Positions 4,371 to 52,866 of a stretch of DNA of 64,000 nucleotides are shown in pieces. The DNA comes from Nitrospirota bacterium (GTDB lineage: Bacteria; Nitrospirota; JACRHJ01). The position numbers and the translations under genes were made by a program. The stretch's first letter is position 1. Every line of letters begins with the position of its first letter. The notes below the pieces were generated by a model. The model did no database searches and was not told the DNA's origin. It saw only the letters and a program-made list of their open reading frames with translations. Location of the stretch: NCBI GenBank assembly GCA_016212105.1, contig JACRHJ010000013.1:46782-110781 (forward strand). Reading direction: 5' to 3'.

Positions 4371-4386
4371 ACATGCAAGCAAAAAC

Positions 4387-5955
4387 CTACTCCCACTCAA
4401 TAGTAGACGGCGGCTTCGACGAAATATCGTAGCACACCCGGTTCACGCCCTTTATCTCGTTTATTATCCGGTTCGATATCACGCCAAGCAGGTCGTACGG
4501 CAGACGCACCCAGTCGGCGGTCATCCCGTCCTTGGAGTTCACGGCACGCAGCGCGACGACGTTCTCGTATGTCCGCTCGTCGCCCATGACGCCGACGGTA
4601 CGAATGGGCAGCAGCACCGCGAACGACTGCCATATCTCCCTGTACAGACCCGCCTTCTTTATCTCCTCCAGGACGACCGCGTCCGCCTCGCGCAGTATGC
4701 GAAGACGCTCCGCGTTTACCTCGCCGAGTATGCGTATGGCAAGCCCCGGGCCGGGGAACGGCTGACGCCAGATTATCTCGTCCGGCATCCCGAGCTCCTT
4801 GCCAAGCTCCCTGACCTCGTCCTTGAACAGCTCGCGGAGCGGCTCGACAAGCTTCAGCTTCATCTTCTCCGGCAAGCCCCCGACGTTGTGGTGGGACTTT
4901 ATGATGGCAGACGGGCCTTTGAGCGACACGCTCTCGATTACGTCCGGGTAGAGCGTACCCTGCGCGAGGAACTCCGCCCCTTCGACCTTCGCAGCCTCGG
5001 CCTCGAACACCTCTATGAACGTCGTGCCGATAATCTTGCGCTTCTTCTCCGGGTCTTCCACTCCCGCCAGCCTGGACAGGAACGTCTCGGAGGAGTCCAC
5101 GTACTTGAGGTTCAGGCCCATCTGCGCGTAGGTCTCCGGCACCCGCTCCGCCTCGCCCTTCCTCAGCACGCCGTTGTTTACGAATATGCAGGAGAGCTGG
5201 TCGCCGATGGCCCTGTGCACGATGACCGCCGCGACCGAGGAGTCCACGCCTCCGGACAGCGCACATATCACCTTCCGGTCGCCGACCTGCTCTCGTATGA
5301 TGCCGACCGCGTAGTCTATGAAGCTGCCCATGTCCCAGGTCGGTTCGCAGCCGCAGATGCCGAACAGGAAGTTCTTGAGTATCTGGAAGCCCTGCGGCGT
5401 GTGTACGACCTCCGGGTGGAACTGCACGCCGTAGAAACGGCGCGCCTTATCCGCCATCGCCGCGGTCGGGGAGTTGTCCGTGTGCGCGACCGGCCCGAAG
5501 CCCTCCGGCATCCGCTCAATCCTGTCGCCGTGCGACATCCAGACCACTGTGCTGCTCGCGGACTCGCCCTCGCCTATGCCGCCGATCGCCTTGAGGAGGT
5601 CCGACTCGTCGTCGATAAGAAGCTCCGCCCGGCCGTACTCGCGCTTGGCCGCCTTGGCGACCTCCCCGCCAAGCAGGTGGGTCATGAGCTGCATCCCGTA
5701 GCATATGCCGAGCACCGGGACTCCGAGGTCCAGGTGCTCCTTCGAGATGAGCGGCGCGCCGTCGTCGTAGACGCTTGACGGGCCGCCGGAGAGTATCAGG
5801 CCTTTGGGGTTGAACGCACGCACCTTCTCGATACCCGCGTTGTACGGCATTATCTCGCAGTAGACCTTCGCCTCCCTGACCCTGCGCGCGATGAGCTGGG
5901 TGTACTGTGAACCGAAGTCGAGTACGAGTACCCTTTGCTGGTGTATGTCTGACAA
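4387..5955 (-). CDS. guaA: GMP synthase (glutamine-hydrolysing)
   Basis: [28 protein letters not shown]..., GATase and ATP-PPase (SGGVDSS) motifs, C-terminus ...[11 protein letters not shown] start at 5955 with GGAGG 8 nt upstream. Confidence 0.95.
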
Positions 5956-5959
5956 GACG

Positions 5960-6277
5960 TTGACCTCCGGTAATTAATTGTGCGGGCGCGGTTTTTCGCG
6001 CCCTTCCAAACTGTAGGGGCCGACCGTCGTGTCGGCCCTTGCGGTTGTTATTATGTAGGGGCGGGCCTCCGTGCCCGCCCTTGCGGTTTATTTGTTCGTC
6101 ATTCCCGCGAAGGCGGGAATCCAGGAAGTTGTAGGGCGCGACGCCCCCGGCGCGCCGGAATAAGGTGCGGGCGCGGAATCCGCGCCCCTACAATATTCAT
6201 ATACAGGCAGATTCTTCGCTTCGCTCAGAATGACACCAAAGAGGGCGGGCACGGGGACCCGCCCCTACATAAAATCC
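5960..6277. repeat. Intergenic mosaic of short hairpin repeat modules (families F, C, D, A, E, F, J, D)
   Basis: tgtaggggccgaccgtcgtgtcggccc; tgtaggggcgggcctccgtgcccgccc; gtcattcccgcgaaggcgggaatcc; tgtagggcgcgacgcccccggcgcgcc; ttcgcttcgctcagaatgacacc; gggcgggcacggggacccgcccctacataaaa. All recur elsewhere in the window. Confidence 0.85.
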
Positions 6278-6361
6278 AAATCCCCCTCATTCCCCCTTTT
6301 TCAAAGGGGGAGGTCAGGTCTTGTCCCCACTTTGTAAAAGGGGGGACTACAGGGGGGATTT
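6278..6361. repeat. 84-bp TIR-bounded hairpin element (copy 1), MITE-like; direct repeat of 6954..7038
   Basis: aaatccccctcattccccctttttcaaagggggaggtcaggtcttgtccccactttgtaaaaggggggactacaggggggattt. Terminal inverted repeats AAATCCCCC/GGGGGGATTT and an internal hairpin ccccctttttcaaaggggg. Confidence 0.75.
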
Positions 6362-6368
6362 GCCTTCC

Positions 6369-6854
6369 TCACTCGTCCTTCAGCTTGAAGTCCGTCCCGC
6401 CCTGGTCGTCGCCGGCGCGCGCCTCCCATACAAGCTCCAGCATGCTGCCGGGGTGGTATATCTCAAGCACCTTCTTCGAATGCCCTCCGGCGGGAAGCGT
6501 GAAGACCCCGACCTTGAAGGACTTCCCGTCCATGCCGATGCTGAACGTGTACTCGTGCCCCGCCGGGAGCCGGACGTGGAACAGGCCGTCGTCCTGGTTT
6601 ATCTCGGCCGTGCGCCTGAAGTCCCCGGCCACGAATAACGCAAGCAGCGGCCCCTTGTGGGGAGTGCCGTACTCGGAGCAGAGCGTCCTGCCGAGCAACT
6701 GGACAGACTCGGCAGTCTCGGCGTCCGTCTTCTCCTCCGTGCACGGGGGCGGGATGTCGTCGATAATGACCGGGCCGGTCGTGGCCGCGTGCGCGGTCAG
6801 CGCGAAGAGCACCAGTGTGGACAGGATTACCAATAGCGCGAACTTGTACATCAT
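6369..6854 (-). CDS. Secreted hypothetical protein (signal peptide MMYKFALLVILSTLVLFALTAHA), flanked by two copies of an 84-bp element
   Basis: Clean 161-aa ORF with host-like GC and an N-terminal signal peptide; no family recognised. Confidence 0.6.
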   Translation of the reverse strand: MMYKFALLVILSTLVLFALTAHAATTGPVIIDDIPPPCTEEKTDAETAESVQLLGRTLCSEYGTPHKGPLLALFVAGDFRRTAEINQDDGLFHVRLPAGHEYTFSIGMDGKSFKVGVFTLPAGGHSKKVLEIYHPGSMLELVWEARAGDDQGGTDFKLKDE

Positions 6855-6953
6855 ACTGCAACTCCATACGTCGAGTCCGTCATTCCCGCTGGTGCGGGAA
6901 TCCAGGAACTTTACTGTTAGCAGTGACCGGTGATGATCATGCCCGGCCTCTTT

Positions 6954-7038
6954 AAATCCCCCTCAATCCCCCTTTTTCAAAGGGGGAGGCTTATGCATTG
7001 TCCCCACTTTGAAAAAGGGGGGACTACAGGGGGGATTT
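6954..7038. repeat. 84-bp TIR-bounded hairpin element (copy 2)
   Basis: aaatccccctcaatccccctttttcaaagggggaggcttatgcattgtccccactttgaaaaaggggggactacaggggggattt. About 85% identical to copy 1, same orientation. Confidence 0.75.
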
Positions 7039-7052
7039 GCTTTTCTCTCCCC

Positions 7053-7475
7053 TCACACCAGCTCCTTGCCCGTCGTCGCCATGCTCAGCTTGCCGTGCAC
7101 GACGCCCTTCGTCCCGATCATCCGGTCGGCAATCCTCTTGACCACCGAGGCCTTGCCGCGCACGACCATCACTTCGAGGCAGTTGTGCTCGTCCAGGTGC
7201 ACGTGCAGGTTAGATATTATCGCGTGGTAGAAGTGGTGCTGGAGGTCGTTCAGGGTGTCCGACAGCTCTCGCGTGTGGTGGTTGTACACGAGCGTGATCG
7301 TACCGACCACCTCCTGGTCCTCCTCCCACTCCCGGCCGACGAGCGCGTCCCGTATCAGGTCGCGTATCGCCTCGGAGCGGTTGGTATAGCCCTTCTCGGC
7401 GGTGAACCCGTCGAACCGGTCCATCAGCTTCTTGTCTATGGAAATCGCAATGCGTGTCAGGTCTTTTCCACCCAA
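7053..7475 (-). CDS. nikR: Nickel-responsive regulator NikR (RHH + ACT-like metal-binding domain)
   Basis: [16 protein letters not shown]...[16 protein letters not shown] (ribbon-helix-helix); C-domain H-rich ([20 protein letters not shown]). TTG start at 7475 with GGAGGG 9 nt upstream. Confidence 0.85.
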
Positions 7476-7518
7476 GGCCGTCCGCCCTCCGAAACCGGTT
7501 AATTTCAGCTATGCCGTT

Positions 7519-7547
7519 TATTATGTATGCTTAGGATTTCAAGTCAA
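7519..7547 (-). promoter_or_regulatory. Putative sigma70 promoter for nikR (TTGACT-17-ATAATA on minus strand)
   Basis: Minus strand reads cTTGACTtgaaatcctaagcatacATAATAaacgg, upstream of nikR. Confidence 0.35.
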
Positions 7548-7629
7548 GAAAAAAATGCCGGGGCCGCAACCATATTGGCGATGATGCGCATAAAATACAG
7601 CGTTAGTTGAACAATCCGCCAGAATTAAC

Positions 7630-7659
7630 TTGACATTAAAAGTACGGTATTGCTATTCT
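7630..7659 (+). promoter_or_regulatory. Putative sigma70 promoter for the ApbE-like gene (TTGACA-18-TATTCT)
   Basis: aacTTGACAttaaaagtacggtattgcTATTCTatg; divergent from the nikR promoter. Confidence 0.35.
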
Positions 7660-7731
7660 ATGTTATACGTTTTCGAAGTCAAGAACAGGGCCGGATAAAC
7701 TTCCCCCCGCTGTTCAGGGGCAGGACGCGGT

Positions 7732-8460
7732 TTGCTTATGTACGAGGAGCGGACTTACAGGGGCAGGGTGCGCGCGGACGGGCTCGTCGCATTCACGGCC
7801 GTCGTCAAGGAGACCGACCTCTTTATCCTCGCGGACAGCGACCTCTCGGCGCTCGCGCTCGAAGTGGTCATAAGGCACCGGCACCAGCTCGAGACCTACA
7901 TCGCGGGCCACCCGGAGTTCCTGACCTCGCTCGTGCCTGTCGAGCTGAAGCTCGGCGCGCCGGAGTCCGCCGTGCGCATGGCGAGGGCCGCGCTGCCCGC
8001 GAACGTCGGGCCCATGGCGGCGGTCGCTGGCACGTTCTCGGAGCTTGTCGGCGAGGCGCTCCTCGCCCGGTCGTCCCAGGCCATCGTCGAGAACGGCGGG
8101 GACATCTATATCAAATCGACAAGCGAGCGGGTTGTCGCCCTTTACGCCGGCGACTCGCCGCTCTCCGGCAGGGTCGGGCTTAACATCCGCCCTGGCGACA
8201 CGCCGCTGGGGGTATGCACGTCGTCGGGGCGGGTCGGCCATTCGCTCTCGCTCGGCAGGGCGCACGCGGCCTGCATAATATCGAAGTCCACCGCACTCGC
8301 GGACGCGGCCGCAACCGCCGTCGGAAACGCCGTGCAGGGGCCGGGCGACGTCGAGAAGGGCATTGCGCGCGCGCAGGAAATCGAAGGCGTCTTGGGCGCC
8401 GTGGTAATCGCGGGCGACCGGCTCGCCGCCTGGGGGCTGGTCGAATTGGTGAAACTGTAG
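7732..8460 (+). CDS. ApbE-like / UPF0280 family protein
   Basis: GPMAAVAGTFSE..., VENGGDIYIKS, LGVCTSSGRVGHSLSLGRAHAACIISKSTALADAAATA, resembling the ApbE fold; 242 aa. Confidence 0.55.
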   Translation: MLMYEERTYRGRVRADGLVAFTAVVKETDLFILADSDLSALALEVVIRHRHQLETYIAGHPEFLTSLVPVELKLGAPESAVRMARAALPANVGPMAAVAGTFSELVGEALLARSSQAIVENGGDIYIKSTSERVVALYAGDSPLSGRVGLNIRPGDTPLGVCTSSGRVGHSLSLGRAHAACIISKSTALADAAATAVGNAVQGPGDVEKGIARAQEIEGVLGAVVIAGDRLAAWGLVELVKL

Positions 8461-8948
8461 GGTGGGCTACGCCCCACCATTGCATATTGGATTTTGGTTC
8501 ACTGTAGGGCGCGACGCCCCCGGCGCGCCGAGGGTTGTCATTGCGAGGAGTCCCGCGCTTCGCGGGACGACGCGGCAATCTCCACCATAATAATACAAAC
8601 GGAGGAGGTTGCTTCGCTCCGCTCGCAAAGACAGATAATAACATGAAGGGCCGACACACGGGTCGGCACCTACATAAAAGCATGGCGGGCAATGCACGCC
8701 CTACAACTAATGTTGCAGGGGGCCGTACCAGGCGAAGCGCGTGTCAGCCCAACCTGTCACCCCCGTGAAAACGGGGGTCCATTTTAACCTTGCGCGGGAA
8801 AATGGATTCCCGCTTTCGCGGGAATGACAACCTTGAAAGGTCTGTCATGGCGGGCAATGCCCGCCCTGCAACTTCCTGGACCCCGTGTCAAGCACGGGGC
8901 GACAAGCATAATCCGTCATTCCCGCGAAGGCGGGAATCCAGGAATTTT
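8461..8948. repeat. Intergenic mosaic of hairpin modules (G, E, C, G-like, B, A, G-like, H, A)
   Basis: tgtagggtgggctacgccccacc; tgtagggcgcgacgcccccggcgcgccg; gggccgacacacgggtcggcacctacataaaag; gtcacccccgtgaaaacgggggtcc; ggattcccgctttcgcgggaatgac; ccccgtgtcaagcacgggg; gtcattcccgcgaaggcgggaatcc. Confidence 0.85.
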
Positions 8949-8979
8949 CACGAACACGAAACACGAACACGAAACACGG
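8949..8979 (+). promoter_or_regulatory. CA-rich tandem element (cgaacacgaaaca x2) occupying the SD position upstream of the FmdE-like gene; a second copy lies upstream of the GT2 gene at 58786..58806
   Basis: cacgaacacgaaacacgaacacgaaacacgg ends 12 nt before ATG 8991 with no SD in between. A 21-nt near-identical copy sits 13 nt before the ATG of the minus-strand gene 57888..58772. Confidence 0.4.
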
Positions 8980-8990
8980 AATTTAGCTAC

Positions 8991-9464
8991 ATGTCTTTCG
9001 ACTTCACAGCCCTCTACGAGTTCCACGGCCACCGCTGCCCGATGTCCACGATGGGCGCGCGTCTCGGTCTTGCCGCGATGGCCGCGCTCGGCGTGACGAA
9101 GGCCGACCAGTTCAAGGTCGAGGGGCTGTTCCATACGAAGAACTGCGCGCTGGACGGCATACAGTTCACCACCGGCTGTACGCTCGGGAACGGGAACCTC
9201 GCATATGCGGAGGAGGGACGCGCGGCGTTCACACTGAATCGGCGGGACGGCCGTGGCGGCGTAGTCGTGACGGTGTCCGGCGCCGCGCTCGAAAGGCTCT
9301 CCGGGTTCAAGGAGTTCAAGGCCCGGCTCATGGAGGAGCGCGATATAAGCGGCCTCGCCCGCGCGATGGAGATAGACGCGGAGATAAACAGGGGTTTCGA
9401 CGCCCTGGTCGACTGGGTACAGTCGGCGGACGAGGGCGGGTTGGTAACAGTGACAGCAGCTTGA
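8991..9464 (+). CDS. FmdE/FwdE-family domain protein (formylmethanofuran dehydrogenase subunit E-like)
   Basis: MSFDFTALYEFHGHRCPMSTMGARLGLAAM..., the HGHxCP motif of PF02663. The upstream part of the longest ORF (8790..) covers repeat modules and is rejected. Confidence 0.75.
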   Translation: MSFDFTALYEFHGHRCPMSTMGARLGLAAMAALGVTKADQFKVEGLFHTKNCALDGIQFTTGCTLGNGNLAYAEEGRAAFTLNRRDGRGGVVVTVSGAALERLSGFKEFKARLMEERDISGLARAMEIDAEINRGFDALVDWVQSADEGGLVTVTAA

Positions 9465-9476
9465 GGAGGTAGCCGC

Positions 9477-10409
9477 ATGGCCGCCAAAATATATGACGGG
9501 GTACTGGAGCTTATCGGCAAGACGCCGCTTGTGCGGCTTGTCCGGATGACCGGCGAGAAGGACGCGGCGGTCTATGCAAAGGTCGAGGGCGCGAACCCCG
9601 GCGGGAGCGTCAAGGACAGGATAGCGCTCTCGATGGTGGAGGAGGCCGAGAAGTCCGGCCACCTCAAGCCCGGCGGGCTGATAATAGAGCCGACGAGCGG
9701 GAATACCGGCATCGGCCTGGGCATAGTCGCGGCCATCAAGGGCTACAAGCTGATACTGACCATGCCGGAGACGATGTCCGTCGAGCGCAGGACGCTCCTT
9801 GCGGCGTACGGGGCGGAGCTTGTGCTGACCCCCGGCCCGGAGGGGATGCGGGGCGCGGTGGTAAAGGCGGAGGAGATAGCGGCCGCCAACCCCGGCAGCT
9901 TCATACCCCAGCAGTTCAACAACCCGGCGAACCCGGAGGTCCACAGGAAGACGACGGCGAGGGAGATACTCTCCGCGCTCGGCCCCCGGATAGACACGTT
10001 CGTCGCGGGCGTCGGCACCGGCGGCACCATCACCGGTGTAGGCGAGGTGCTCCGCTCCAAGAACAAGGACATAAAAATCGTCGCGGTCGAGCCGTCGGCG
10101 TCGCCCGTGCTGTCCGGCGGCACGCCCGGCCCGCACAAGATACAGGGCATAGGCGCGGGCTTTGTCCCGACGGTCCTGAACACGCAGATATACGACGAGA
10201 TAATACAGGTGACGAACGAGGACGCGGCGGATACAGCGAGGCGTCTCGCCGCCCAGGAGGGCATACTCGCCGGCATATCCTCCGGCGCGGCTCTTTTCGC
10301 CGCCCTCGCGGTGGCAAAGAGGCTCGGCAAGGGCAAGAACGTCGTCGTCATACTCCCGGACAGGGGCGAGCGCTACCTCAGCACGGGGCTGTTCGGGGGC
10401 GGGGCGTAG
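9477..10409 (+). CDS. cysK: Cysteine synthase (O-acetylserine sulfhydrylase)
   Basis: GKTPLVRL..., [10 protein letters not shown] (PLP lysine), [20 protein letters not shown]; 310 aa. Confidence 0.9.
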
Positions 10410-10410
10410 A

Positions 10411-10735
10411 TGTAACTTCCTGGGCTCCGTGTCAAAGCCTGCCCTGAGCCCCGGCTTTATGCATACCGGGGTAAACTCCGCCGAATGGGCACGGGGAGAC
10501 ACCAAAAGCCTGTCATTCCCGCGAAAGCGGGAATCCAGCGACGTTGCTTTTATCGTACCATTGAGAAAGGCAGGGCCGACACACGGGTCGGCCCCTACAT
10601 AAAAACAGAACCTTCGGCGCGCCGGGGGCGTCGCGCCCTACGAAATACCGCAGTGGGGGCCACACAGAAGTTCTTGGGCCGCCTTCTTACAAGAAGGCGG
10701 GACTTGTATCGTTAAAGCTGGCGTTTCTCATGCGC
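10411..10735. repeat. Intergenic mosaic (H with nested N insertion, A, C, E, K)
   Basis: ccgtgtcaaagcctgccctgagccccggctttatgcataccggggtaaactccgccgaatgggcacgggg; gtcattcccgcgaaagcgggaatcc; gggccgacacacgggtcggcccctacataaaaac; ggcgcgccgggggcgtcgcgccctac; agttcttgggccgccttcttacaagaaggcgggactt. Confidence 0.85.
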
Positions 10736-10772
10736 CGTTGACCACAACCTGTTCTGACAGGGGGAGAGTGAT

Positions 10773-11237
10773 ATGCAGTTATCGACCAAGGGGCGGTATG
10801 CGGTCAGGGCTATGTTCGACCTGGCGTTTTATTCGCAGGGGGAGCCTGTCCCGCTGTCGAGGATATCGGAGCGGGAGGAGATATCGCTCCATTACCTTGA
10901 GCAGCTCTTCAACAAGCTCCGTAAGGGCGGCGTGGTCGAGTCCGTGCGCGGCCCGTCCGGCGGGTTCAAGCTTGCGAGGAAGCCCTCCGAGATCTCCGTG
11001 GAGGAGATAATCAGCATCGTCGAGGGTCCGATAGTCCCGGTCTCCTGCCTGGAGCACAAGGACAAGGACAGGGTCTGCCACAGGGCGGAGAAATGCGTCA
11101 CGTTCATCCTCTGGAAGCGGCTGGGCAAGAACATAACCGAGTTCCTGTCCTCGGTCACGCTCCAGGACCTGGTGGACGAGGCGAGGGAGCTTCTCGACTC
11201 CGGGAAGGTCACGCACGACTATATGTTCTACATATAA
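10773..11237 (+). CDS. Rrf2-family transcriptional regulator (IscR/CymR-like, Cys-containing)
   Basis: MQLSTKGRYAVRAMFDLA... wHTH, SGGFKL, Cys residues C92/C101/C107; adjacent to cysK. Confidence 0.85.
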   Translation: MQLSTKGRYAVRAMFDLAFYSQGEPVPLSRISEREEISLHYLEQLFNKLRKGGVVESVRGPSGGFKLARKPSEISVEEIISIVEGPIVPVSCLEHKDKDRVCHRAEKCVTFILWKRLGKNITEFLSSVTLQDLVDEARELLDSGKVTHDYMFYI

Positions 11238-11239
11238 GT

Positions 11240-11400
11240 TCTTGTGTCGCCCCGTGCTTGACACGGGGTCCAGGAAGTTGTAGTTGCCCGATTTATCGGG
11301 CGGTTGTCAATGCAGGGCCGACACGCGGGTCGGCCCCTACATAAAAACAAGAACTTCCTGGATTCCCGCCTTCGCGGGAATGACGGCTATACTTGCAATA
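11240..11400. repeat. Intergenic mosaic (H, O, C, A)
   Basis: ccccgtgcttgacacgggg; ttgcccgatttatcgggcgg; gggccgacacgcgggtcggcccctacataaaaac; ggattcccgccttcgcgggaatgac. Confidence 0.8.
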
Positions 11401-11416
11401 GAAAGGACGTTCCATC

Positions 11417-12331
11417 ATGGACGACCACAAGCTTAAGGTCTTCTGCACGGTGGCCGAGACCAAGAGCTTCTCCAGGGCGTCGGAGATAATCCACCTGACC
11501 CAGCCGGCCGTGAGCCTGCAGGTGCAGGCGCTCGAGGAGATATACGAGACGAAGCTGTTCGACCGCTCCGGCGGGACGGTGACGCTCACCCCGGCGGGCG
11601 AGCTGTTGTACAACTACGCCAAGGACATACTCGGCCTGTACGCCTCGGCGAAGAAGGACATCAACGCGATGATCGGCCTCGTCAAGGGGAGCCTGTCCAT
11701 AGGCGCAAGCTCGACCGTCGGCAACTACCTCCTGCCCTCGGTCATCGTCGCCTTCCGGAAGAACCACCCGAGGATAAAGATAAACCTCATCGTCAGCAAC
11801 ACGAAGATGGTCGTGGAAAAGCTCCTCGCGGGCGAGATAGACCTGGGCATAGTCGAGGGCGACGTGACCAAGCACAAGCTTGTGGTGGACAAACTCCTGC
11901 CGGACGAGCTGGTGCTCATCATGAGCCCGGACCACCCGTGGGCGAAGCGCAAGAACGTCTCCGTCTCGGAGCTGCCAAAGGAGCCGTTCGTCATGCGCGA
12001 GCAGGGCTCCGGGACCAGGCAGATGATAGAGAAACGGCTCGAGGAGAACAAGATCTCGCCGGCCAGCCTGACGGTCTCCCTGTACCTCGGCAGCACGGAG
12101 GCGATAAAGACCGCGGTCGAGGACGGGCTCGGCGTGTCCATAGTGTCGTCGTGGGCGGCCCGCAAGGAGCTGCATGCCGGGAGCCTCGTCGCCGCCACAT
12201 TCAAGGACGCGAAGTTCCCGAGGCACTTCACGCTTATCCAGAGGAAGAACTCGTTCGCCTCGCACACGCAGGAGGAGTTCCTCGAGTTCCTCAAGATATA
12301 CCCCTACGAGAACCCGATGAAAAACGCATGA
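11417..12331 (+). CDS. LysR-family transcriptional regulator
   Basis: N-terminal HTH (LKVFCTVAETKSFSRASEIIHLTQPAVSLQVQALEE) and a LysR substrate-binding domain; 304 aa. Confidence 0.9.
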   Translation: MDDHKLKVFCTVAETKSFSRASEIIHLTQPAVSLQVQALEEIYETKLFDRSGGTVTLTPAGELLYNYAKDILGLYASAKKDINAMIGLVKGSLSIGASSTVGNYLLPSVIVAFRKNHPRIKINLIVSNTKMVVEKLLAGEIDLGIVEGDVTKHKLVVDKLLPDELVLIMSPDHPWAKRKNVSVSELPKEPFVMREQGSGTRQMIEKRLEENKISPASLTVSLYLGSTEAIKTAVEDGLGVSIVSSWAARKELHAGSLVAATFKDAKFPRHFTLIQRKNSFASHTQEEFLEFLKIYPYENPMKNA

Positions 12332-13482
12332 CCCTTTCGAAGATTGCAGTCCTCCCGCTGATACTGGCGTTCACGGCCACCCTCCTGGCCTGGACGGAGC
12401 CCGTCCATGCCCGCGACGGCGGGCGGAAGGTTGTTCACACATCCCGCAAGAAGTCCACAAAAAAGTCCCGCAGGTCGTCCTGGAAGAAGAAACCGGCCGT
12501 AAGGCCACCCGCGCATGCGCGCCCGGCAGACCCTGCCGCCGAGGCCGCGGCGCTCGCGGCTTCCGGCGAGGCCCTGCTGGACGGCTACGACGGTACGGAC
12601 AACGCCATGATCGACCGCGCGGAAAGCGAGTTCAGGAAGGCGCTCGCCACGGAACCCGGGCTGGTTGCGGGTTACGTCGGGCTGTCGAAGGTCGCGGCAT
12701 ACCGGGGTTACGCCGGGGGCGGCAGCTTCGACGACAGGGCGCTTACCCGCGCGCTGACGCTCGCGGACAGGGCGCTGGAGCTCGACCCGTCCTCAGGCGC
12801 CGCCTACCTCCAGCGGGGCTACATCCTGTTCTACCTGGAGAGCTACGGGCTTGCGAGGCGGCAGGCGGACAGGGCGGAGGGGCTCGGTGTCAAGGCGTCC
12901 GCGCTTTACGGCGAGCTTGCAATAAAGTCCGGGGACCGTACTGAGGCGAGGCGCATGTTCAAGGCCGCGCTGGGCGAGGCGGGCGAAAGCAGGGGCAGGA
13001 AGGCGGACGCGCTCGACGCGCTCGGGGAGCTTGCGATGGCCGACGCCGACTACGACACCGCCGTGGAGATGTTCAAAGGCGCCTCCGCGCTCAGGCCGGA
13101 CTCGTCATGGGAGGCGTCGAACTACGGGCTGGCCCTTGTCCAGTCCGGGCGTTACGACGAGGCGATAGAGATACTCGGCTACTCGCTGAAGAAGCACGAC
13201 TTCCCGGAGGCGAGGAGCAACCTCGCGCTCGCCTACCTCAAGAAAGGCGTATTCCTGCACGACTCCGGAGAAACGGCGAGGGCGAAGCGCTGCTACCTGA
13301 ATGCGCTGGAAATCGACCCCGGCCTCAAGCCCGTTTACAGGAACCTCGCCGCCATATACCAGGCGGAGGGGAACGACGAGGGCGTGAGGTCCCTGTGCCG
13401 CAGGCTCATGAAGCAAGACCCCGACGACCCCTGGGCAAGGCTCACGCTCGAAGAGATGGCCGGGACAGTACCCCCGCACTGA
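12328..13482 (+). CDS. Secreted TPR-repeat protein
   Basis: ATG 12328 overlaps the LysR stop (ATGA). Signal peptide MTLSKIAVLPLILAFTATLLAWTEPVHA, then multiple TPR-like A/L/Y-rich repeats. The longest ORF from 11938 is rejected because it overlaps LysR in another frame. Confidence 0.75.
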   Translation: MTLSKIAVLPLILAFTATLLAWTEPVHARDGGRKVVHTSRKKSTKKSRRSSWKKKPAVRPPAHARPADPAAEAAALAASGEALLDGYDGTDNAMIDRAESEFRKALATEPGLVAGYVGLSKVAAYRGYAGGGSFDDRALTRALTLADRALELDPSSGAAYLQRGYILFYLESYGLARRQADRAEGLGVKASALYGELAIKSGDRTEARRMFKAALGEAGESRGRKADALDALGELAMADADYDTAVEMFKGASALRPDSSWEASNYGLALVQSGRYDEAIEILGYSLKKHDFPEARSNLALAYLKKGVFLHDSGETARAKRCYLNALEIDPGLKPVYRNLAAIYQAEGNDEGVRSLCRRLMKQDPDDPWARLTLEEMAGTVPPH

Positions 13483-13485
13483 CCC

Positions 13486-14121
13486 CTACCTCCCGAGCGG
13501 CATGCCCCGCTTGAACAGCATCGGGACCCTTGCGGACTCGTGGTCGAGGTAGACCCTGTCGAGGACTACAAGCACCGGCCCGCCCTTCATCTCCTTGGGC
13601 CTCGAAAACACCACGAGCCCGGAGGCCTTCCCGCCCGGCTCTATGGCCAGCGTGTTGTCGAGCGCGGTCTCCCTGTATACCTCCATCCTCTCCTCGACGT
13701 CGTCCATCTTCACCAGTTCGAAGTCTGTATAAAGAGACGTGTAGTCGAGGGCGAAGGTCGGGTCGCCCTTGGGCGGATACAGCTCAGTCCTCCGCGGGTC
13801 GTAAGTGAGGAGCTTCTTCTCGCCCCTGTTCTCTATAGTCATGTACATGACTATGTACGGGCCGGGCGGGAACGGATTCTTGTACTTCCCGTCCTTGAGG
13901 AGCGAGAAGTAGACGTCGAGGTTCTCCGGCGACAGGTACGAGACCTCTACCATCACGTCCGGGACAGTGTACCGCACAGTGTTGCCTTCGTACTGGTACA
14001 GCTTGTCTTCCGCTTCCATATTCTCCTCATAAGGCGAGATGCTCCCGCACCCGGTGAGCGCGAAGGCCGCGAGCGCGGCGCACAGGCTTATCAGGCAGAG
14101 CTTGACGGATGAGTCTCTCAT
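13486..14121 (-). CDS. Lipoprotein, hypothetical
   Basis: Signal peptide plus lipobox LTGC (MRDSSVKLCLISLCAALAAFALTGCGS). GGAGG before the ATG. Confidence 0.65.
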   Translation of the reverse strand: MRDSSVKLCLISLCAALAAFALTGCGSISPYEENMEAEDKLYQYEGNTVRYTVPDVMVEVSYLSPENLDVYFSLLKDGKYKNPFPPGPYIVMYMTIENRGEKKLLTYDPRRTELYPPKGDPTFALDYTSLYTDFELVKMDDVEERMEVYRETALDNTLAIEPGGKASGLVVFSRPKEMKGGPVLVVLDRVYLDHESARVPMLFKRGMPLGR

Positions 14122-14196
14122 TTTGGCACCTCCGGTATTCCGGCCAAGTTATCATAACATGGCCGGGGTGTCAACAGGCCCGGCCAAATAAAGGGT

Positions 14197-14224
14197 TTGA
14201 TTTATCCCGCCTTTGGTTTATAAT
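14197..14224 (+). promoter_or_regulatory. Putative sigma70 promoter (TTGATT-16-TATAAT) for the paralog pair
   Basis: ggTTTGATTtatcccgcctttggttTATAATgtatgc, ~40 nt upstream of ATG 14263. Confidence 0.45.
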
Positions 14225-14262
14225 GTATGCGGTAAAAATACACCCCAACAGCCGGAGTAGAC

Positions 14263-14544
14263 ATGAAACTCACGCCCATGCAGGTAAGGTCTCTGTCGGA
14301 CGAGATGGTGTCGCAGCTGTCCAGGCACGGCCTTGTGAAGCTCAAGGTACCGGCCGAGACGGCCTCGGCGATGGTCGAGAAGGCCCTGACCGACGACCTC
14401 CAGGCCGAGGACAGGCTGAACGAGGAGGTCGAGAAGATACTGAAGGCCCACGAGAGGGACATCGCGGCGGGCCGCATGGACTACAAGACGATGTTCGACC
14501 TCGTCAAGAAGAAGCTCGTGCGCGAGCGCGGCCTGGTACTATAG
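14263..14544 (+). CDS. Small conserved protein, DUF507-like (paralog 1)
   Basis: 93 aa. Shares the pattern M+L..xx..LS....L...G...L.....ED...EV.K.....R.I..G....D.MF with the next gene. Confidence 0.5.
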   Translation: MKLTPMQVRSLSDEMVSQLSRHGLVKLKVPAETASAMVEKALTDDLQAEDRLNEEVEKILKAHERDIAAGRMDYKTMFDLVKKKLVRERGLVL

Positions 14545-14610
14545 CAATTCCCCCTCACCCCCAGCCCCGTACACCCGCGAGGGGAGAGGGGAGCACACGG
14601 AGAATACGAT

Positions 14611-14886
14611 ATGCGCCTTTCGGAAGACAAGATAAGCCACCTCTCGCACGTCGCCTTCGACGCGCTGGTCAAGGGCGGCGCGGCCGAGCTTCTCGCGGAC
14701 GACGCGAAGGTGCGCCGCGAGCTGAAACAGCTCATCGCGCGCCGCGTTAAGGAGGAGGACGAGGTCGGTGACATCGTCAGGAAGAAGATACAGTCCTACT
14801 CGCGCCGCATAATGGAGGGCAGCCCGGAATGGGACGTGATGTTCCGGAAGCACTACGAAGAGGAGATGAACAAGCGGGGGAAGTAG
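14611..14886 (+). CDS. Small conserved protein, DUF507-like (paralog 2)
   Basis: 91 aa: MRLSEDKISHLSHVAFDALVKGG...GSPEWDVMFRKHYEE. Paralogous to 14263..14544; GGAG RBS. Confidence 0.5.
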   Translation: MRLSEDKISHLSHVAFDALVKGGAAELLADDAKVRRELKQLIARRVKEEDEVGDIVRKKIQSYSRRIMEGSPEWDVMFRKHYEEEMNKRGK

Positions 14887-14887
14887 C

Positions 14888-15140
14888 CTCGTTTGCCTTT
14901 ATGTAGGGGCAGGTCCCCGTGCCTGCCCTGCCTGTCACCCCCGCGAACGCGGGGGTCCGGTGACTTGGTTCCGGGCTTGTTTCTTGATTGACGAAAGTCC
15001 CTGGATTCCCGCTGGAGTTTACCCCGGTACTCCTAAGGCCGGGGCGGGAATGACGTTCAACTAAAACGTGAATTGCCGTACCTTTTCTTAACTCACAAAA
15101 GTTCTTGGGCCGCCTTCTTTCAAGAAGGCGGGACTTTGTT
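14888..15140. repeat. Intergenic mosaic (D, B, A with nested N insertion, K)
   Basis: tgtaggggcaggtccccgtgcctgccc; gtcacccccgcgaacgcgggggtcc; ggattcccgc[tggagtttaccccggtactcctaaggccgggg]cgggaatgac; aagttcttgggccgccttctttcaagaaggcgggactt. Confidence 0.85.
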
Positions 15141-15156
15141 CTTCGAGGTTTATGTA

Positions 15157-17271
15157 ATGTCATCCGGCAGGGAAATATCAGCGGAAGGCGTCATCGGCAG
15201 GAACAGGTTCCTCATCGCCGTGTCCGCGGCATACTTGGCCGCGGCCGTCAGCCCGCTGTGGGGGCTCGCATGGGGCACGATGGCCGCGGCGGTCTGGTCC
15301 GGCGTCGTACTCGTCCTGCTCCTTGCCGGGAGCTGGCGGATGCTGCGCGCGGGCGGCCCGCAGTCGAGGACGGACTTCGAGTTCATCGTCCCGCTCATCC
15401 TCGCGGTGAACCTCTTCGCGTCGCTGCTCGGCCCGGACAGGGCATGGCTCCAGCCGATGGCATATCTTGTTGTCGCCCTCTGCGCCCTCTACTTCTCCAT
15501 AGGCTTCAACCTCTCGGTCGCGGGCCTGATATTCGGTCTCGAATTTCTGAACGCCGTCGTCACGCCTGACGGCCTCGACCTCGAGAAGTCCATAAGCCTC
15601 CTCGTCTTCGGCGCGTACCTCGTGGCCGCCGCGCTGGTCCTCGGCAGGCTGTTCCAGTCCGAGTACAGGAAGCGGGAGCGGGCTGTCAAGGCCGTGAAAC
15701 GGCTGCAGGAGGGCGCGCTTTCGCTCGACACCGAAGACACGCCCGACCCGACGGTCGGACACATCTCCCCCGTGGGGAAGATGGGCAGGCTCCTCGACCA
15801 GGCGGCGACGCTCGACCGCGCACTCGAAGACCTCCTCGAGACCGCCCGCTCCGCGATACCCTCCGAGAACGCGCTCCTGTTCATGCCGGAGAGCGGGGGG
15901 GACGGCCTGTTCCTGAGGCTTTACCTGGGCGGCGCGGGCATAATCGAGGACTGCACCATACCCGCGGGCCAAGGGCTTGTCGGCTGGGTGGCCAAGGAGA
16001 AAAAGCCTCTGGTCACGCACGGCAAGGCGAGGGGCATTGGATACGTAAAGAACGAGGAGTCAGTGCGCTCGCTGGTAGCCGCGCCGATAATGAACGGCGG
16101 CTACCTGGAGGGTGTCATAGTGCTCGACTCCTCCCAGCCGGACGCGTTCACGGACGTCGAGAAGGACGTGCTGGAGCGGTTCGCGGGAATCGCGCTGTAC
16201 CTGCTCCAGAACGCGAGGCAGTACCAGCAGGCGGACCACTCAGCCAGGAACTTCGGAGCGCTCCACAAGATAAGCTCCGAGCTGTCTTCCACGCTCGACC
16301 TGGGCGACATACTGGAGCGGCTCGCTACTCTCTCAAAGGACATCCTGCCCTACGACAACCTCACCATCGCCCTGACCGAGGCGGGCGGCAAGGTGCGGTT
16401 CAGGACGATAAAGGGCTACGGGCCGATGCAGCCCCCTGCCGACGCGGTGGCCGTCGAGGGTAGCCTGCTCGGCTGGATCGTCGAGAACCGCCAGCCGCTC
16501 AGCTTCTCGGACCTCGACCAGCGCACCGACAAGCTGCCTATATTCCCCGTCAAGGACCTCCAGGCCTCATGCCGGTCTTTCCTCGGCATACCGCTGGTCA
16601 GCCACGACGAGGTGCTGGGGCTGTTCACGCTGTCGCTCCGGGAGCCGGACGCGATAACCGGATACCAGCAGCACGTGCTGTCCATCATAGCGAACCAGGT
16701 CGCGGTCAACATAGCCAACGCGAAGCTGCACTACATGATGCAGCAGATGGCGACGACCGACGGGCTGACCGGGCTCATCAACCACAGGCATTTCCAGGAG
16801 AAGGCGGACGCGGAGTTCGCGCGCGTGGCGCGGTACCCCGGCCCGCTGTCCATACTCCTGCTGGACATCGACCACTTCAAAAAGGTGAACGACACTTACG
16901 GACACCCCGTCGGGGACGCGGTATTGAAGCGCGTATCGAAGATACTCAAGGACACGGTCCGGGACTCGGACATCGCGGCCCGTTACGGAGGCGAGGAGTT
17001 CGTCGCGCTCCTCACGAACACGGACGAGAAGGGCGCGATGCAGATGGCGGAGCGCATCCGCGTGACCATCGAGAAGAGCCGGTTCCTTCTGGACGGCAAG
17101 AACATACCCATCACGGTAAGCGTCGGCTGCGCGAGCCACCCGGTGGACGCGGGCGACAAGGCCGGGCTTATCGCGAAGGCCGACCAGGCACTCTACTGGT
17201 CCAAGGGCCACGGCAGGAACCGCTGCACGCCGTCGCGCGAGGTGGGCGATGCCGCCCCGGAGAAACATTAG
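15157..17271 (+). CDS. Membrane-anchored diguanylate cyclase with two GAF domains (GGDEF, GGEEF active-site motif)
   Basis: N-terminal multi-TM region, two GAF domains, then the GGDEF domain: LTGLINHRHFQEKADAEFARVARY..LSILLLDIDHFKKVNDTYGH..GDAVL...RYGGEEFVALL. Start set at ATG 15157 (GAGG RBS), after the K hairpin repeat, rather than the upstream TTG 15073. Confidence 0.9.
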   Translation: MSSGREISAEGVIGRNRFLIAVSAAYLAAAVSPLWGLAWGTMAAAVWSGVVLVLLLAGSWRMLRAGGPQSRTDFEFIVPLILAVNLFASLLGPDRAWLQPMAYLVVALCALYFSIGFNLSVAGLIFGLEFLNAVVTPDGLDLEKSISLLVFGAYLVAAALVLGRLFQSEYRKRERAVKAVKRLQEGALSLDTEDTPDPTVGHISPVGKMGRLLDQAATLDRALEDLLETARSAIPSENALLFMPESGGDGLFLRLYLGGAGIIEDCTIPAGQGLVGWVAKEKKPLVTHGKARGIGYVKNEESVRSLVAAPIMNGGYLEGVIVLDSSQPDAFTDVEKDVLERFAGIALYLLQNARQYQQADHSARNFGALHKISSELSSTLDLGDILERLATLSKDILPYDNLTIALTEAGGKVRFRTIKGYGPMQPPADAVAVEGSLLGWIVENRQPLSFSDLDQRTDKLPIFPVKDLQASCRSFLGIPLVSHDEVLGLFTLSLREPDAITGYQQHVLSIIANQVAVNIANAKLHYMMQQMATTDGLTGLINHRHFQEKADAEFARVARYPGPLSILLLDIDHFKKVNDTYGHPVGDAVLKRVSKILKDTVRDSDIAARYGGEEFVALLTNTDEKGAMQMAERIRVTIEKSRFLLDGKNIPITVSVGCASHPVDAGDKAGLIAKADQALYWSKGHGRNRCTPSREVGDAAPEKH

Positions 17272-17372
17272 GACACTTCCACGTCCCGCCTTTTTGTAAA
17301 AAGGCGGCCCAAAAACTTTCGGCAGATTGCATTGTTCCATGCCGCCTGAACTGCTGGTACTGCAAAATTCTA

Positions 17373-20124: not shown

Positions 20125-20410
20125 TCCAGATTTGACACCCGCCGATTCCTCCGGTAATATTTATTCAACCCGCCGGGTTGTCATTCCCGCGAAAGCGGGA
20201 ATCCATTGGAAAAGCATAAAGCCAAAATGGACCCCCGTTTTCACGGGGGTGACAATCAAGGGATAAGTAGTAGGGTGGGCTGCGCCCACCAATAATAATC
20301 GGTGGGCATAGCCCACCCTACATGTTCGAGGTCTTTGTAGGGCGCGACGCCCTCGGCGCGCCGAGCCGTCAGACGATCGGTGCATAGCCCACCCTACATA
20401 TACAGGAGCG
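20125..20410. repeat. Intergenic mosaic (A, B, G, E, G)
   Basis: gtcattcccgcgaaagcgggaatcc; ggacccccgttttcacgggggtgac; tagggtgggctgcgcccacc...ggtgggcatagcccaccctaca; tgtagggcgcgacgccctcggcgcgccg. Confidence 0.85.
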
Positions 20411-23587: not shown

Positions 23588-23943
23588 GCCGAGGTTTCGT
23601 CGCCGCGCTCCTGTCCGGGCTCGCCTGCCCCGGCGCGGGGCAGATATACAACAGGCAGTACGTAAAGGGCGGGATACTTGCCGCCATAACGCTCATTATC
23701 GTCGGCGCGGTTTTCTATCTTACATGGACCGGGATGTCCGAGGCCACTTCGTCCATGCCCCCGGAGGAGGTGCTCCTGGACCTCTTCGGCATTGCCCGCC
23801 GCGTCCTCGAATCCAACAGGGAGACGTTCCTCCGGCTAACGGCCGCGTTCGCCGTCGTGTGGGTGTATGGCATGGTTGACGCATATGTGTGCGGCGGACG
23901 GGTAAAAGACCTCGACACGCCCGGCACGCGTGGGTCTTTGTAG
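23584..23943 (+). CDS. Small membrane protein (TM2/DUF4870-like GxGQxYNxQxxKG motif); TTG start overlapping the upstream stop
   Basis: The tail of ORF 22729..23943 reads MSRGFVAALLSGLACPGAGQIYNRQYVKGGILAAITLIIVGAVFYL... after TTG 23584, which is preceded by GAGGAAG. Not listed separately in the ORF track. Confidence 0.45.
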   Translation: MSRGFVAALLSGLACPGAGQIYNRQYVKGGILAAITLIIVGAVFYLTWTGMSEATSSMPPEEVLLDLFGIARRVLESNRETFLRLTAAFAVVWVYGMVDAYVCGGRVKDLDTPGTRGSL

Positions 23944-24068
23944 GGTGCGACGCCCCCTCAAGCCGATTGTCATTCCCGCGAAAGCGGGAATCCATTGTAA
24001 TGGCCGAGTCAAATTGGACCCCCGTTTTCACGGGGGTGACAGGCAGGGCCGACACACGGGTCGGCCCC
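23944..24068. repeat. Intergenic mosaic (E-like, A, B, C)
   Basis: tgtagggtgcgacgccccc; gtcattcccgcgaaagcgggaatcc; ggacccccgttttcacgggggtgac; gggccgacacacgggtcggcccctacatgaaag. Confidence 0.85.
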
Positions 24069-24071
24069 TAC

Positions 24072-24716: not shown

Positions 24717-25322
24717 TTAAGATATAACCGTTGATTTAAATGCACTTTGAATGTCTTCGATAAACTTCTTGAAACTATTATCTCGTTTTGATGCGAGTTT
24801 TACATCCATTTCTTTTGCTAAATCTCCTCCGTATTCGGCCCCGCCTCTACGTGGCCTTATCCCGCCAGCAATAAAGGCATCCCTCAACATCTTTTTGTAA
24901 ACATCCTTCTCGCATTTTCCAAGTTGCGGGGTATCGGGGGTAGGTATGTTGCCGACCGTCGCCAATGCTTTGCAATCCAATAAATACCAGCACTCGATAT
25001 GTGGCTCTGGTAAAGCCAGGACAAGCGGTGTCAATCCTAATGCATCGCCGGTCTCTTTTTCTACAAGTTTTCGTTTTCCGTTATAGCCAGAACAATTGGC
25101 ATCAACCGAAACCACGACAACATCGTATTTTATAGCACGGCCTATTTTCAACCCGCTCAAATACCGATAGTAGGTCCCCAACGATGCACCTTTTTGATCG
25201 TTAAGGACAACTATTTCGATAGCAATTTTCTTATCGGCGGCGACTCGTTCGATTAAACCGCAGATTATTTCTTTCTGCGCGATGTCCTCCAGAAACACGG
25301 CGACTCGAAGAATTCTACCCAC
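24717..25322 (-). CDS. DUF4276-family protein (TOPRIM/OLD-like, AbiLii-like) in a low-GC island
   Basis: GRILRVAVFLEDIAQKE (N-terminal acidic strand), DVVVVSVDAN (DxD-like), HIECWYLLD (E-x-W motif). Preferred start is GTG 25322 with GGAG 6 nt upstream, overlapping the upstream stop by 8 nt; TTG 25364 and ATG 25358 are alternatives. GC ~45%. Confidence 0.65.
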   Translation of the reverse strand: MGRILRVAVFLEDIAQKEIICGLIERVAADKKIAIEIVVLNDQKGASLGTYYRYLSGLKIGRAIKYDVVVVSVDANCSGYNGKRKLVEKETGDALGLTPLVLALPEPHIECWYLLDCKALATVGNIPTPDTPQLGKCEKDVYKKMLRDAFIAGGIRPRRGGAEYGGDLAKEMDVKLASKRDNSFKKFIEDIQSAFKSTVIS

Positions 25323-26619: not shown

Positions 26620-26701
26620 ATTTGCATGCCTTTTCCATCGGTAAACCTGAGAGAATGCCGTCGCCAAGTACGACATGCTATCGGAAACCTTCCGCCACCC
26701 C

Positions 26702-29070: not shown

Positions 29071-29104
29071 TTTATGCTGCCTTCTGTAGGGGCCGGAAAA
29101 ATGC

Positions 29105-29300
29105 CGGCCCTCGTTGATTCTGGTTTATGTAGCTGCCCGATTCATCGGGCGTTTTTAATAGCGCCCACAACTGAGCGGGTTACAACTGTTTGTCACCCCC
29201 GTGCAAACGGGGGTCCATTTTGACGTTATTCATGAAAATGGATTCCCGCTTTCGCGGGAATGACGATATCGAGAGTTGGCGCGGGAACTATCCCTGCCAA
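29105..29300. repeat. Intergenic mosaic (O, B, A)
   Basis: ctgcccgattcatcgggcg; gtcacccccgtgcaaacgggggtcc; ggattcccgctttcgcgggaatgac. Confidence 0.8.
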
Positions 29301-32214: not shown

Positions 32215-32470
32215 CGGATGAATATCCGGACATCCTCTTACATACGCACGCTCAAGGGGGCGCGCCCCCTTGCACCCCCGGACAAGGGGGAAACGTTCCC
32301 CCTTGCATCCCCTCGACCCTGTACGGATGGAGGCCAACTTATGGCGAGCTTTGCCCGCCGTATTTTTAACAACCTGGCCTCATCCTTGTGCTCCCCCTCT
32401 TAAGATAAGAGGGGGCCGGGGGGCGTTATGAAGTAACGGCGATTAATCTGAATATTCAGCAGCCGGGTTA
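32215..32470. repeat. Intergenic hairpin modules (L family)
   Basis: caagggggcgcgcccccttg, caagggggaaacgttcccccttg and ccctcttaagataagaggg hairpins. Confidence 0.7.
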
Positions 32471-36164: not shown

Positions 36165-36350
36165 CCGGCGGTTGATTACCTAAATCCCCCATCCTCTGAT
36201 AAGAGGGGGGCTGGGTGGTGTTATTAATTCAGCAACATAATAGGCAAACTTCCTGGACCCCGTGTCAAGCACGGGGAGACGAACAAGCACACGTCATTCC
36301 CGCCCCGGCTTTAGACATACCGGGGCAGGCTCCAGCGGGAATCCAGTGAC
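36165..36350. repeat. Intergenic mosaic (M, H, A with nested N insertion)
   Basis: cctctgataagaggggggctgggtggtg; ccccgtgtcaagcacgggg; gtcattcccgc[cccggctttagacataccggggcaggctcca]gcgggaatcc. Confidence 0.85.
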
Positions 36351-48579: not shown

Positions 48580-48584
48580 GCTGC

Positions 48585-48855: not shown

Positions 48856-48858
48856 AAC

Positions 48859-50841: not shown

Positions 50842-50844
50842 GAG

Positions 50845-51170: not shown

Positions 51171-51172
51171 AT

Positions 51173-51550: not shown

Positions 51551-51594
51551 TAAGCGCTCCCCGCCTGAAGGGTTTACCCCTTGTCAAGGTTGGA

Positions 51595-52827: not shown

Positions 52828-52866
52828 AGACTTCCCCTGTCAAAGGTCGGTTTATAAAGATTTGTG

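Follow-up and report, generated by a model that had tools for sequence, protein, structure and literature searches.

Hairpin arrays in the intergenic gaps

The 64,000-nucleotide stretch of DNA analysed here (below, the window) lies on contig JACRHJ010000013.1 (positions 46,782 to 110,781, forward strand) of the Nitrospirota bacterium assembly GCA_016212105.1, and many of its intergenic gaps contain mosaics of short palindromic modules. The window has a G+C content of 62%, and Pfam scans of the called genes revealed chromosomal housekeeping and signalling functions, including hflX, guaA, nikR, cysK, rrf2, lysR, a large chemotaxis cluster, atpB/E and glycosyltransferases; the GuaA protein is 100% identical to MBI5189413.1 of a Nitrospirae/Nitrospirota metagenome-assembled genome. 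The mosaics between these genes consist of two already-described hairpin-repeat superfamilies, headed by a GTAG tag and by a CGTC or TGTC tag, plus a few extras, unusually dense and nested, in a Nitrospirota host.

Modules were identified with a repeat finder, pattern searches and a hairpin map, and were counted with family consensus patterns. This gave 60 copies spread over 15 gaps, or 9.4 per 10 kb, all of them intergenic (60/60, with 0 in coding sequence) and in both orientations, which bears out the location, avoidance of genes and mixed orientation given in a preliminary description of this DNA. Family A was found in 11 copies at three mismatches or fewer, whereas 100 dinucleotide shuffles contained no copy; counting the loop variant at 6878 and the long-loop variants at 15003-15054 and 36293-36344, the total reaches the 14 copies claimed as a minimum. 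The counts for families B (7), C (10), D (5) and J (3) were likewise reproduced, while those for E (4, not 5), G (4, not 6), H (4, not 6) and K (5, not 6) came out lower. Perfect stems of at least 7 bp directly 3' of a GTAG tag were observed 18 times against 0.8 in shuffles, and directly 3' of a YGTC tag 34 times against 4.0.

By a measure based on repeated 12-mers, 14 of the 28 gaps of at least 40 nt bear repeats, and family patterns match in 15 gaps, so that the preliminary wording "almost every intergenic gap" was too strong. Repeats occur in 13 of 22 tandem gaps and in one of two convergent gaps, while the four divergent gaps (833 nt in total) are free of them, which is the distribution described for repetitive extragenic palindromes (REPs). 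The "more than 12 families" of the same description reduce to stem variants on two scaffolds, with K and the C-run hairpins as a few additions, and do not represent a dozen separate systems.

The arrays are built from heads-out doublets, usually of two different stem variants (B/A, H/A, C/N, D/E', E/F), G/G also being found. The window has six B+..A- doublets, each with a spacer of 22-24 nt, and the same doublet was found in 29 of 80 B-bearing metagenome loci, with spacers of 18-36 nt, on contigs of 45-70% G+C. Doublets sit within the spacers of other doublets of either class, resulting in nested mosaics with up to seven modules in one gap. In the focal region next to guaA (5960-6277), the order is C'+ D+[A+[E+ F-]J-]D-, where brackets enclose what lies in a spacer; the nested D...D part spans 6055-6268. 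Fold prediction, suggested as a check in the preliminary description, recovered this nesting for DNA and RNA alike, with z ~ -9.4 relative to shuffles. All plus modules precede all minus modules in 10 of 13 multi-module arrays, and 0 of 200,000 simulations with random orientation reached 10/13. The "empty" H+A- doublet at 58891-58959 and the "filled" H+[N+ C-]A- at 11245-11385 differ in a way that looks as if a GTAG doublet had entered the spacer of an SRM-type one (SRM, Ssn-related motif, see below).

The Escherichia coli bacterial interspersed mosaic elements (BIMEs, with Y and Z REPs) are similar in being intergenic mosaics of at least two REP variants in opposite orientations whose partner stems differ. 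BIMEs alternate in orientation with fixed linkers, whereas the window arrays run all-plus and then all-minus with variable linkers and mix two unrelated superfamilies; regular alternation with defined linkers was not found in them. In Neisseria intergenic mosaic elements (NIMEs), the same dRS3/NTS hairpin is the recurring inverted repeat of intergenic mosaics. Unlike them, the window has neither RS-type units of 50-150 bp nor Correia elements, and its fillers are other hairpin families.

Several other readings of the mosaics were rejected. A search with Rfam covariance models gave 0 matches at gathering score in the window, and a permissive search (E up to 1) over 5900-11500 gave irrelevant sub-threshold matches only; a match to a known non-coding RNA family, which had been named as grounds for refutation, thus did not occur, and that reading was rejected. 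A CRISPR-like array was also rejected, as was a tRNA or tmRNA origin, tRNA genes being absent from the window by search. An assembly artefact was excluded because the arrays recur in an independent conspecific assembly.

Two tagged hairpin classes and their enzymes

Families C, D, E, F, G, N (GTAGYTGCCCGATTYATCGGGCG) and P (GTAGGGGCCGGAAAAATGCCGGCCC) share one build, namely a GTAG head, a GC-rich stem of 7-8 bp and a loop of 3-8 nt, and together comprise about 27 copies within 64 kb. The single-stranded head reported as common to several families was recovered as TTTATGTAGGG in the C and D copies. GTAG REPs as described by Di Nocera 2013 are palindromes of 20-40 bp with a stem of 6-13 bp, ended by an unpaired GTAG or a near variant; they are extragenic, mainly between co-directional or convergent neighbours, number hundreds per genome, and mostly form head-to-head (HH) dimers or clusters. 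The window modules show the same anatomy (stems of 7-8 bp, 18 perfect-stem hairpins), the same avoidance of divergent gaps (0/4 with repeats) and inverted doublets (G+G-, D+E'- and C/N).

The exact 27-mer of C was found in 39 stretches of a species-representative genome collection, all from metagenome-assembled genomes (MAGs) labelled as at least eight major groups. The labels include Acidobacteriota, Nitrospirota, Chloroflexota, Desulfobacterota-type, Gammaproteobacteria, Bacteroidales (36% G+C), Saccharibacteria (39% G+C) and one Methanosarcinales MAG. The partner of C in these other genomes is usually an inverted copy with a different stem and the same head and loop, which makes a heads-out doublet. 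Contamination during binning may account for C in the low-G+C and Methanosarcinales MAGs (among L001-L039, especially L009 and L018); the Bacteroidales locus L010 is set apart from this concern, because its REP-flanked gene for a REP-associated tyrosine transposase (RAYT) has host-like G+C.

At L010 a C module and its partner hairpins bracket an open reading frame (ORF) of 171 aa, which matches the Pfam family Y1_Tnp at 35.3 bits (cut-off 23) and has some close homologues named "REP element-mobilizing transposase RayT" by the Joint Genome Institute. The G+C of this gene is 0.38, as in the host, and the flanking REP stays GC-rich; the pairing of a low-G+C RAYT gene with a GC-rich REP therefore points to a constraint imposed on the REP by the enzyme, rather than to very recent transfer. 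A profile based on 120 homologues of the L010 protein had L010 as its sole match in 1.29 Mb; being clade-specific, it could overlook distant Y1 enzymes. Neither the window nor 1.7 Mb of module-bearing loci yielded tnpA or tnpB, this single RAYT excepted, and family C gave 0 matches in viral contigs. In anatomy and layout, the GTAG-headed families fit the GTAG-REP superfamily associated with RAYT/TnpA_REP, HUH-Y1 enzymes that bind and cut hairpins of this class in single-stranded DNA, an assignment that the comparison supports.

The likeness to REPtrons, Pseudomonas REPINs and Stenotrophomonas SMAGs thus covers the GTAG head, the 7-8 bp GC-rich stem, the extragenic position beside co-directional or convergent genes, the HH doublets, the several stem variants per genome, and the identical REP (C) bracketing a RAYT gene in L010. 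The window differs from these systems in its host, a Nitrospirota MAG, in its at least seven stem variants within 64 kb, in doublets that usually join two variants and are nested rather than solitary, and in the lack of a RAYT gene.

Families A, B and H have another common build, made up of (C/T)GTC, a stem of 8 bp, a GAAA-type loop of 4-5 nt, the second arm and a CCA(G/T) tail; H is a looser variant and J a bulged version. Module A reads YGTC ATTCCCGC GAAR GCGGGAAT CCA, and module B reads TGTC ACCCCCGT GAAA ACGGGGGT CCA, with a stem that begins AC, not AT. The CGTC class of Di Nocera 2013 has a CGTC to TGTC change, a stem of 8-9 bp starting with A-T pairs, a loop of 4-5 nt and a CCA tail; its members prefer head-to-head dimers, CGTC-1 is equated with Neisseria dRS3, and no transposase association was reported for these repeats. 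Head, stem, loop and tail of this class are all present in A and in B, the latter with its AC start.

Hairpins of this dRS3-type class are bound and cut, as single-stranded DNA, by Ssn enzymes, which are small single-domain GIY-YIG nucleases (cd10448, about 95 aa). In Neisseria meningitidis, the nuclease SsnA binds the NTS repeat (CGTCATTCCCGCGMAVGCGGGAATCYRG) solely as single-stranded DNA (ssDNA), not RNA, and cuts it a few nucleotides upstream (PMC11893778). According to the same study, at least one Ssn-related motif (SRM) lies near 71% of ssnA homologues, and 81% of the genomes carrying more than 200 such motifs encode a homologue. The 28-nt NTS consensus has six copies in the window at one mismatch or fewer, five of them exact. 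The SRM pattern has 18 matches, compared with a mean of 0.80 (maximum 4) in 100 dinucleotide shuffles, an enrichment of about 22-fold; the matches are A, B and one H copy, and their local density is about 280 per Mb.

The exact 25-mer of A was found in 95 IMG/VR stretches, many of them Neisseria-like, with a surrounding G+C of 40-71%; C or T precedes 91 of 97 copies, and CCAG forms the tail. PLSDB also holds A-like sequences, which are located in unannotated DNA from Neisseria, Azospirillum, Sphingobium, Legionella, Cupriavidus and Candidatus Manganitrophus, among others. In the IMG/VR locus L061, a 97-aa GIY-YIG ORF between terminase and portal genes has inverted A copies on either side, and four further homologues (59-64% identity) show the same bracket; in L142-L146, A-type hairpins bracket an ssn-like GIY-YIG gene in five of five loci. 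The idea that this arrangement (L061, L142-L146) reveals a new "master gene" for CGTC repeats was dropped, as it was already published in 2025 as SsnA/NTS (PMC11893778).

The likeness to REP/RAYT systems proposed in the preliminary description therefore stands for the GTAG class, in which a C module flanks Y1_Tnp in L010, and not for the class with the most abundant families, A and B, which is of NTS/SRM-Ssn type. That A and B are RAYT substrates is not supported by published evidence; H and J share their build. Compared with the NTS/SRM-SsnA system (dRS3-type, CGTC-1; Chenal et al. 2025), the window agrees in the fit of A to NTS, the fit of A and B to SRM, the heads-out pairs, the SRM enrichment over shuffles and the bracketing of ssn genes by A-type hairpins in IMG/VR loci. 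It differs in lacking ssn, in its H and J variants and in the interleaving with GTAG REPs.

Relatives, turnover and explanations

The conspecific MAG GCA_016222885.1 (contig JACRQC010000002.1) is colinear with 4386-16034 and 48243-64000 of the window at 97.4-99.4% identity, with a coding divergence of 1.7-1.9%. Comparing presence and absence of modules between strains, also suggested earlier, showed that seven of the 11 compared module-bearing gaps are colinear, with 0-0.9% differences, and that four are structurally different; no structural differences were found at the module-free gaps examined. In the conspecific MAG, a 31-nt indel at 10500-10530 deletes most of A, and the gap at 11238-11394 holds A+ H- instead of H+[N+ C-]A-. 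The gap at 58803-59055 is F' C+[H+ A-]J2- D- in the window and C+ N- in the relative, while at 56189-56386 a five-module array is replaced by a ParE toxin-antitoxin cassette, with the same terminator kept upstream. This cassette (L255, 12396-12880) encodes a ParE-like toxin and a 63-aa antitoxin; the variable segment starts directly after the atpE terminator in both genomes.

Relatives with 82-88% GuaA identity have a different gene order and, by a looser pattern search, 0-0.9 copies per 10 kb, which are degenerate. Together, the conspecific and the more distant comparisons suggest that the families are old in the lineage, strongly expanded in this species, mostly inherited vertically and occasionally remodelled.

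Very probably the arrays are composed of GTAG REPs of the RAYT class and CGTC/TGTC NTS/SRM hairpins of the Ssn class, with cognate enzymes predicted. RAYT and Ssn genes encoded elsewhere in the genome would create and turn over copies on single-stranded DNA, and so generate the arrays, with nesting arising by insertion into spacers. Copies would persist solely where they are harmless, downstream of genes and never in divergent promoter gaps. Over short times the arrays would pass vertically, with occasional insertion, deletion or replacement, and effects at transcript 3' ends may be a by-product. A bolder proposal, which is conceivable and rather doubtful, is that the nested, heads-out mixing of classes reflects, instead of accidental crowding, a preferential insertion of doublets into spacers (ssDNA apical loops) of either class, so that an HUH enzyme (RAYT) and a GIY-YIG enzyme (Ssn) jointly build "Russian-doll" arrays, perhaps used by the host as bidirectional insulators.

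Several observations weigh against this two-enzyme explanation. The window itself has no transposase by Pfam scans of about 50 called genes, as had been stated earlier, and six-frame searches with home-made profiles found no RAYT or Ssn gene in it, so that the cognate enzymes are predicted and not seen. The RAYT link is demonstrated for family C alone, in another phylum. On the Ssn side, most H copies and every J copy do not conform to the SRM pattern; a metagenome scan aimed at an ssn N-terminus behind a B-type hairpin had 0 matches, and a plain scan for B gave 106 stretches, with RAYT or Ssn encoded in 0 of 80 B-bearing loci. Neither system explains the K and C-run hairpins. None of the four polymorphic gaps shows a clean insertion or excision, the 31-nt deletion ending inside the A stem, and decay or recombination therefore fits them as well as nuclease-driven transposition. 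In favour of the explanation, five of eight stem pairs among 23 distinct sequences are changed on both sides with GTAG invariant and the loop conserved; this set was pre-selected for pairing, which builds in 100% pairing and therefore leaves stem variety alone as informative.

The chief competing view is that the modules are mainly RNA elements, host-selected hairpins at transcript 3' ends (terminators, attenuators or mRNA stabilisers), with an incidental link to nucleases. The confinement of the arrays to gaps receiving a gene 3' end would agree with this, and in the heads-out layout a transcript from either side meets "sense" hairpins first. The GTAG modules have T-rich tails and several were flagged by a lax terminator scan, which gave 26 sites over 44-64 kb against 12.9 +/- 3.0 in shuffles. 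The folding of the focal region far beyond its shuffles, as RNA and as DNA, also fits an RNA role, and the abstract of Di Nocera 2013 puts forward REPs as possible agents of transcription termination and mRNA stabilisation. However, the A and B hairpins lack a U tract, their tails being CCAG or CCAT, and the textbook terminator at 56153-56191 is separate from and upstream of the array at 56200-56380, and the conspecific MAG keeps this terminator without the array. The same 25-27-mers occur in distantly related groups, bracketing RAYT or ssn genes, SsnA acts on ssDNA and not on RNA (PMC11893778), and a purely RNA role leaves the conserved unpaired tag and tail unexplained. On balance, a mainly RNA-based function is unlikely.

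Derivation from IS200/IS605 elements is far less probable still. The modules would then be miniatures resembling miniature inverted-repeat or palindrome-associated transposable elements (MITEs or PATEs), mobilised by classical TnpA (and TnpB) through subterminal hairpins. The single-stranded head followed by a hairpin does resemble IS200/IS605 ends, which combine an ssDNA hairpin with an adjacent short guide-like motif, and RAYTs, the enzymes of the GTAG class, are related to IS200 TnpA. The units are nevertheless hairpins of 25-30 nt or doublets of 60-85 nt with no IS body and no distinct, asymmetric left and right ends, and in sequence they agree with REP and SRM families already described. 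Neither the window nor the module-bearing loci contain tnpA/tnpB, the single RAYT aside, and no tnpA/tnpB master copy ended by modules was found in the window or the fetched loci. The preliminary comparison with IS200/IS605 subterminal ends is thus not supported, there being no tnpA/tnpB and no units of IS length bounded by modules. It is just as improbable that the modules are operator-like sites of a host DNA-binding protein, a palindrome regulon neither mobile nor related to nucleases. Their palindromic structure, their intergenic location and the placement of K, fixed in orientation 19-72 nt upstream of start codons, are what such sites would show. Operators would hardly be missing from all four divergent promoter gaps, reach seven modules in a gap, be gained or lost between conspecific genomes with genes unchanged, or recur as identical sequences in unrelated phyla.

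Further features and significance

The coordinates of the modules and arrays are collected in Table 1. The K hairpin (GGGCCGCCTTCTTnCAAGAAGGCGGGAC) carries neither tag. Its strong copies lie at 10676-10703 (+), 15107-15134 (+), 48616-48643 (-) and 50873-50900 (-), and weaker ones at 17283-17310 and 1283-1325. The four strong copies run in the same direction as the next gene, 19-72 nt upstream of its start and at the gene-proximal edge of an array. K was absent among the 80 B-bearing metagenome loci, and may be a lineage-specific 5'-leader or terminator-like element.

In the A- and H-type hairpins at 15003-15054, 36293-36344 and 10421-10509, the loop is replaced by an insert of 30-50 nt with another hairpin (CCCCGGCTTTAnnCATACCGGGG); these are either long-loop variants or hairpins with a module inserted into the loop. 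Hairpins of a C-run and a G-run (for example CCCCCTTTTTCAAAGGGGG) occur at 6282-6377, 6959-7054, 32253-32415, 36186-36210 and 57790-57880, and are members of neither tagged superfamily. Among them is a direct repeat of 96 nt (78% identity), whose two copies overlap the 3' ends of two adjacent genes, one copy at each gene. The K hairpins, the hairpins with C-runs and the CCCCGG hairpin inserted in loops may represent additional repeat classes served by cognate enzymes of their own.

Table 1. Modules and arrays in the window (+ and - give orientation; brackets enclose modules lying in the spacer of a doublet)
Positions	Strand	Feature	Remarks
5984-6003		Untagged F-like hairpin GGGCGCG-GTTTTT-CGCGCCC	guaA-proximal edge of focal array; hairpin map
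6013-6038	+	GTAG REP, C variant (GTAG GGGCCGAC CGTCGT GTCGGCCC)	
6055-6080	+	GTAG REP, D variant	Left outer arm, pairs with 6243-6268
6097-6124	+	Module A, CGTCATTCCCGCGAAGGCGGGAATCCAG	Perfect fit to NTS consensus and SRM pattern (PMC11893778)
6130-6157	+	GTAG REP, family E	Imperfect stem; inner doublet with F
6169-6191	-	GTAG REP, family F (GTAG GGGCGCGG ATT CCGCGCCC)	
6210-6234	-	Module J, degenerate CGTC-type hairpin (GTCATTCTGAGCGAAGCGAAGAATC)	Inverted partner of A
6243-6268	-	GTAG REP, family D	Right outer arm, closes D+[A+[E+ F-]J-]D-
6282-6377		96-nt unit with C-run hairpins	Second copy 6959-7054 (78% identity); neither superfamily
6878-6901	+	A variant, loop TGGT	
8457-8941		G+ E+ [long J-like pair] C- G- B+ A- G- H- A+	Conspecific MAG colinear, 0 differences
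10421-10703		H'(loop insert) A+ C- E- K+	A at 10511-10538
11245-11385		Nested H+[N+ C-]A-	
14903-15134		D+ B+ A(long loop)- K+	
17283-17310	-	Solitary K-like hairpin	
20180-20400		A+ B-, G+ G-, E+ G-(partial)	Three consecutive heads-out doublets
23939-24071		Nested E'+[A+ B-]C-	
29086-29264		P+ N+ B+ A-	
36255-36344		H- and A(long loop)+	Sole tails-out pair
48616-48843		K- G+ C+ [B+ A-] J-	Identical in conspecific MAG
50873-51163		K- C+ (truncated H) [B+ A-]	Identical in conspecific MAG
56200-56380		C+[D+ E'-]C- F	Convergent gap, directly 3' of canonical terminator 56153-56191
57744-57768	+	Solitary J	
58823-59040		Nested F' C+[H+ A-]J2- D-	

Two other loci of the window were recorded. A two-gene island of low G+C (0.52) at 24717-26676 (-) encodes an ATPase (ABC/AAA_15-AAA_21) whose best PADLOC match is HEC-01A (1.3e-54), and a DUF4276-like partner; it is probably a defence cassette. 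The island lies at a switch of gene orientation and of the sign of GC skew, and adjoins the array at 23939-24071. The two paralogous MCP-phosphonate-binding genes (MCP, methyl-accepting chemotaxis protein) at 36962-39859 and 44004-46871 contain internal repeats with a period of 84 nt (28 aa), at 38712-39013 and 45814-45947.

The arrays have practical consequences for assembly and annotation. The independent short-read Logan contig L254 (SRR12113407_153028), from the same species, ends exactly where the array at 50842-51172 begins, and the repeats appear to break short-read assemblies. The modules are also read through as short ORFs (L061, L010) and could seed spurious ORF calls in MAG annotation.

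The window presents known repeat systems in a dense, mixed and nested form and in a host lineage new to them. Ssn homologues have so far been described mainly from Pseudomonadati, and here a dense SRM population is found in an uncultured member of Nitrospirota; from the published figure of 81% for genomes with more than 200 SRMs, an ssn gene is predicted in this genome. Two hairpin systems associated with nucleases exist side by side in one genome and are physically interleaved within shared gaps, and the conspecific assembly pair, with identical genes and four remodelled arrays, can be used for studying how such arrays grow and decay.

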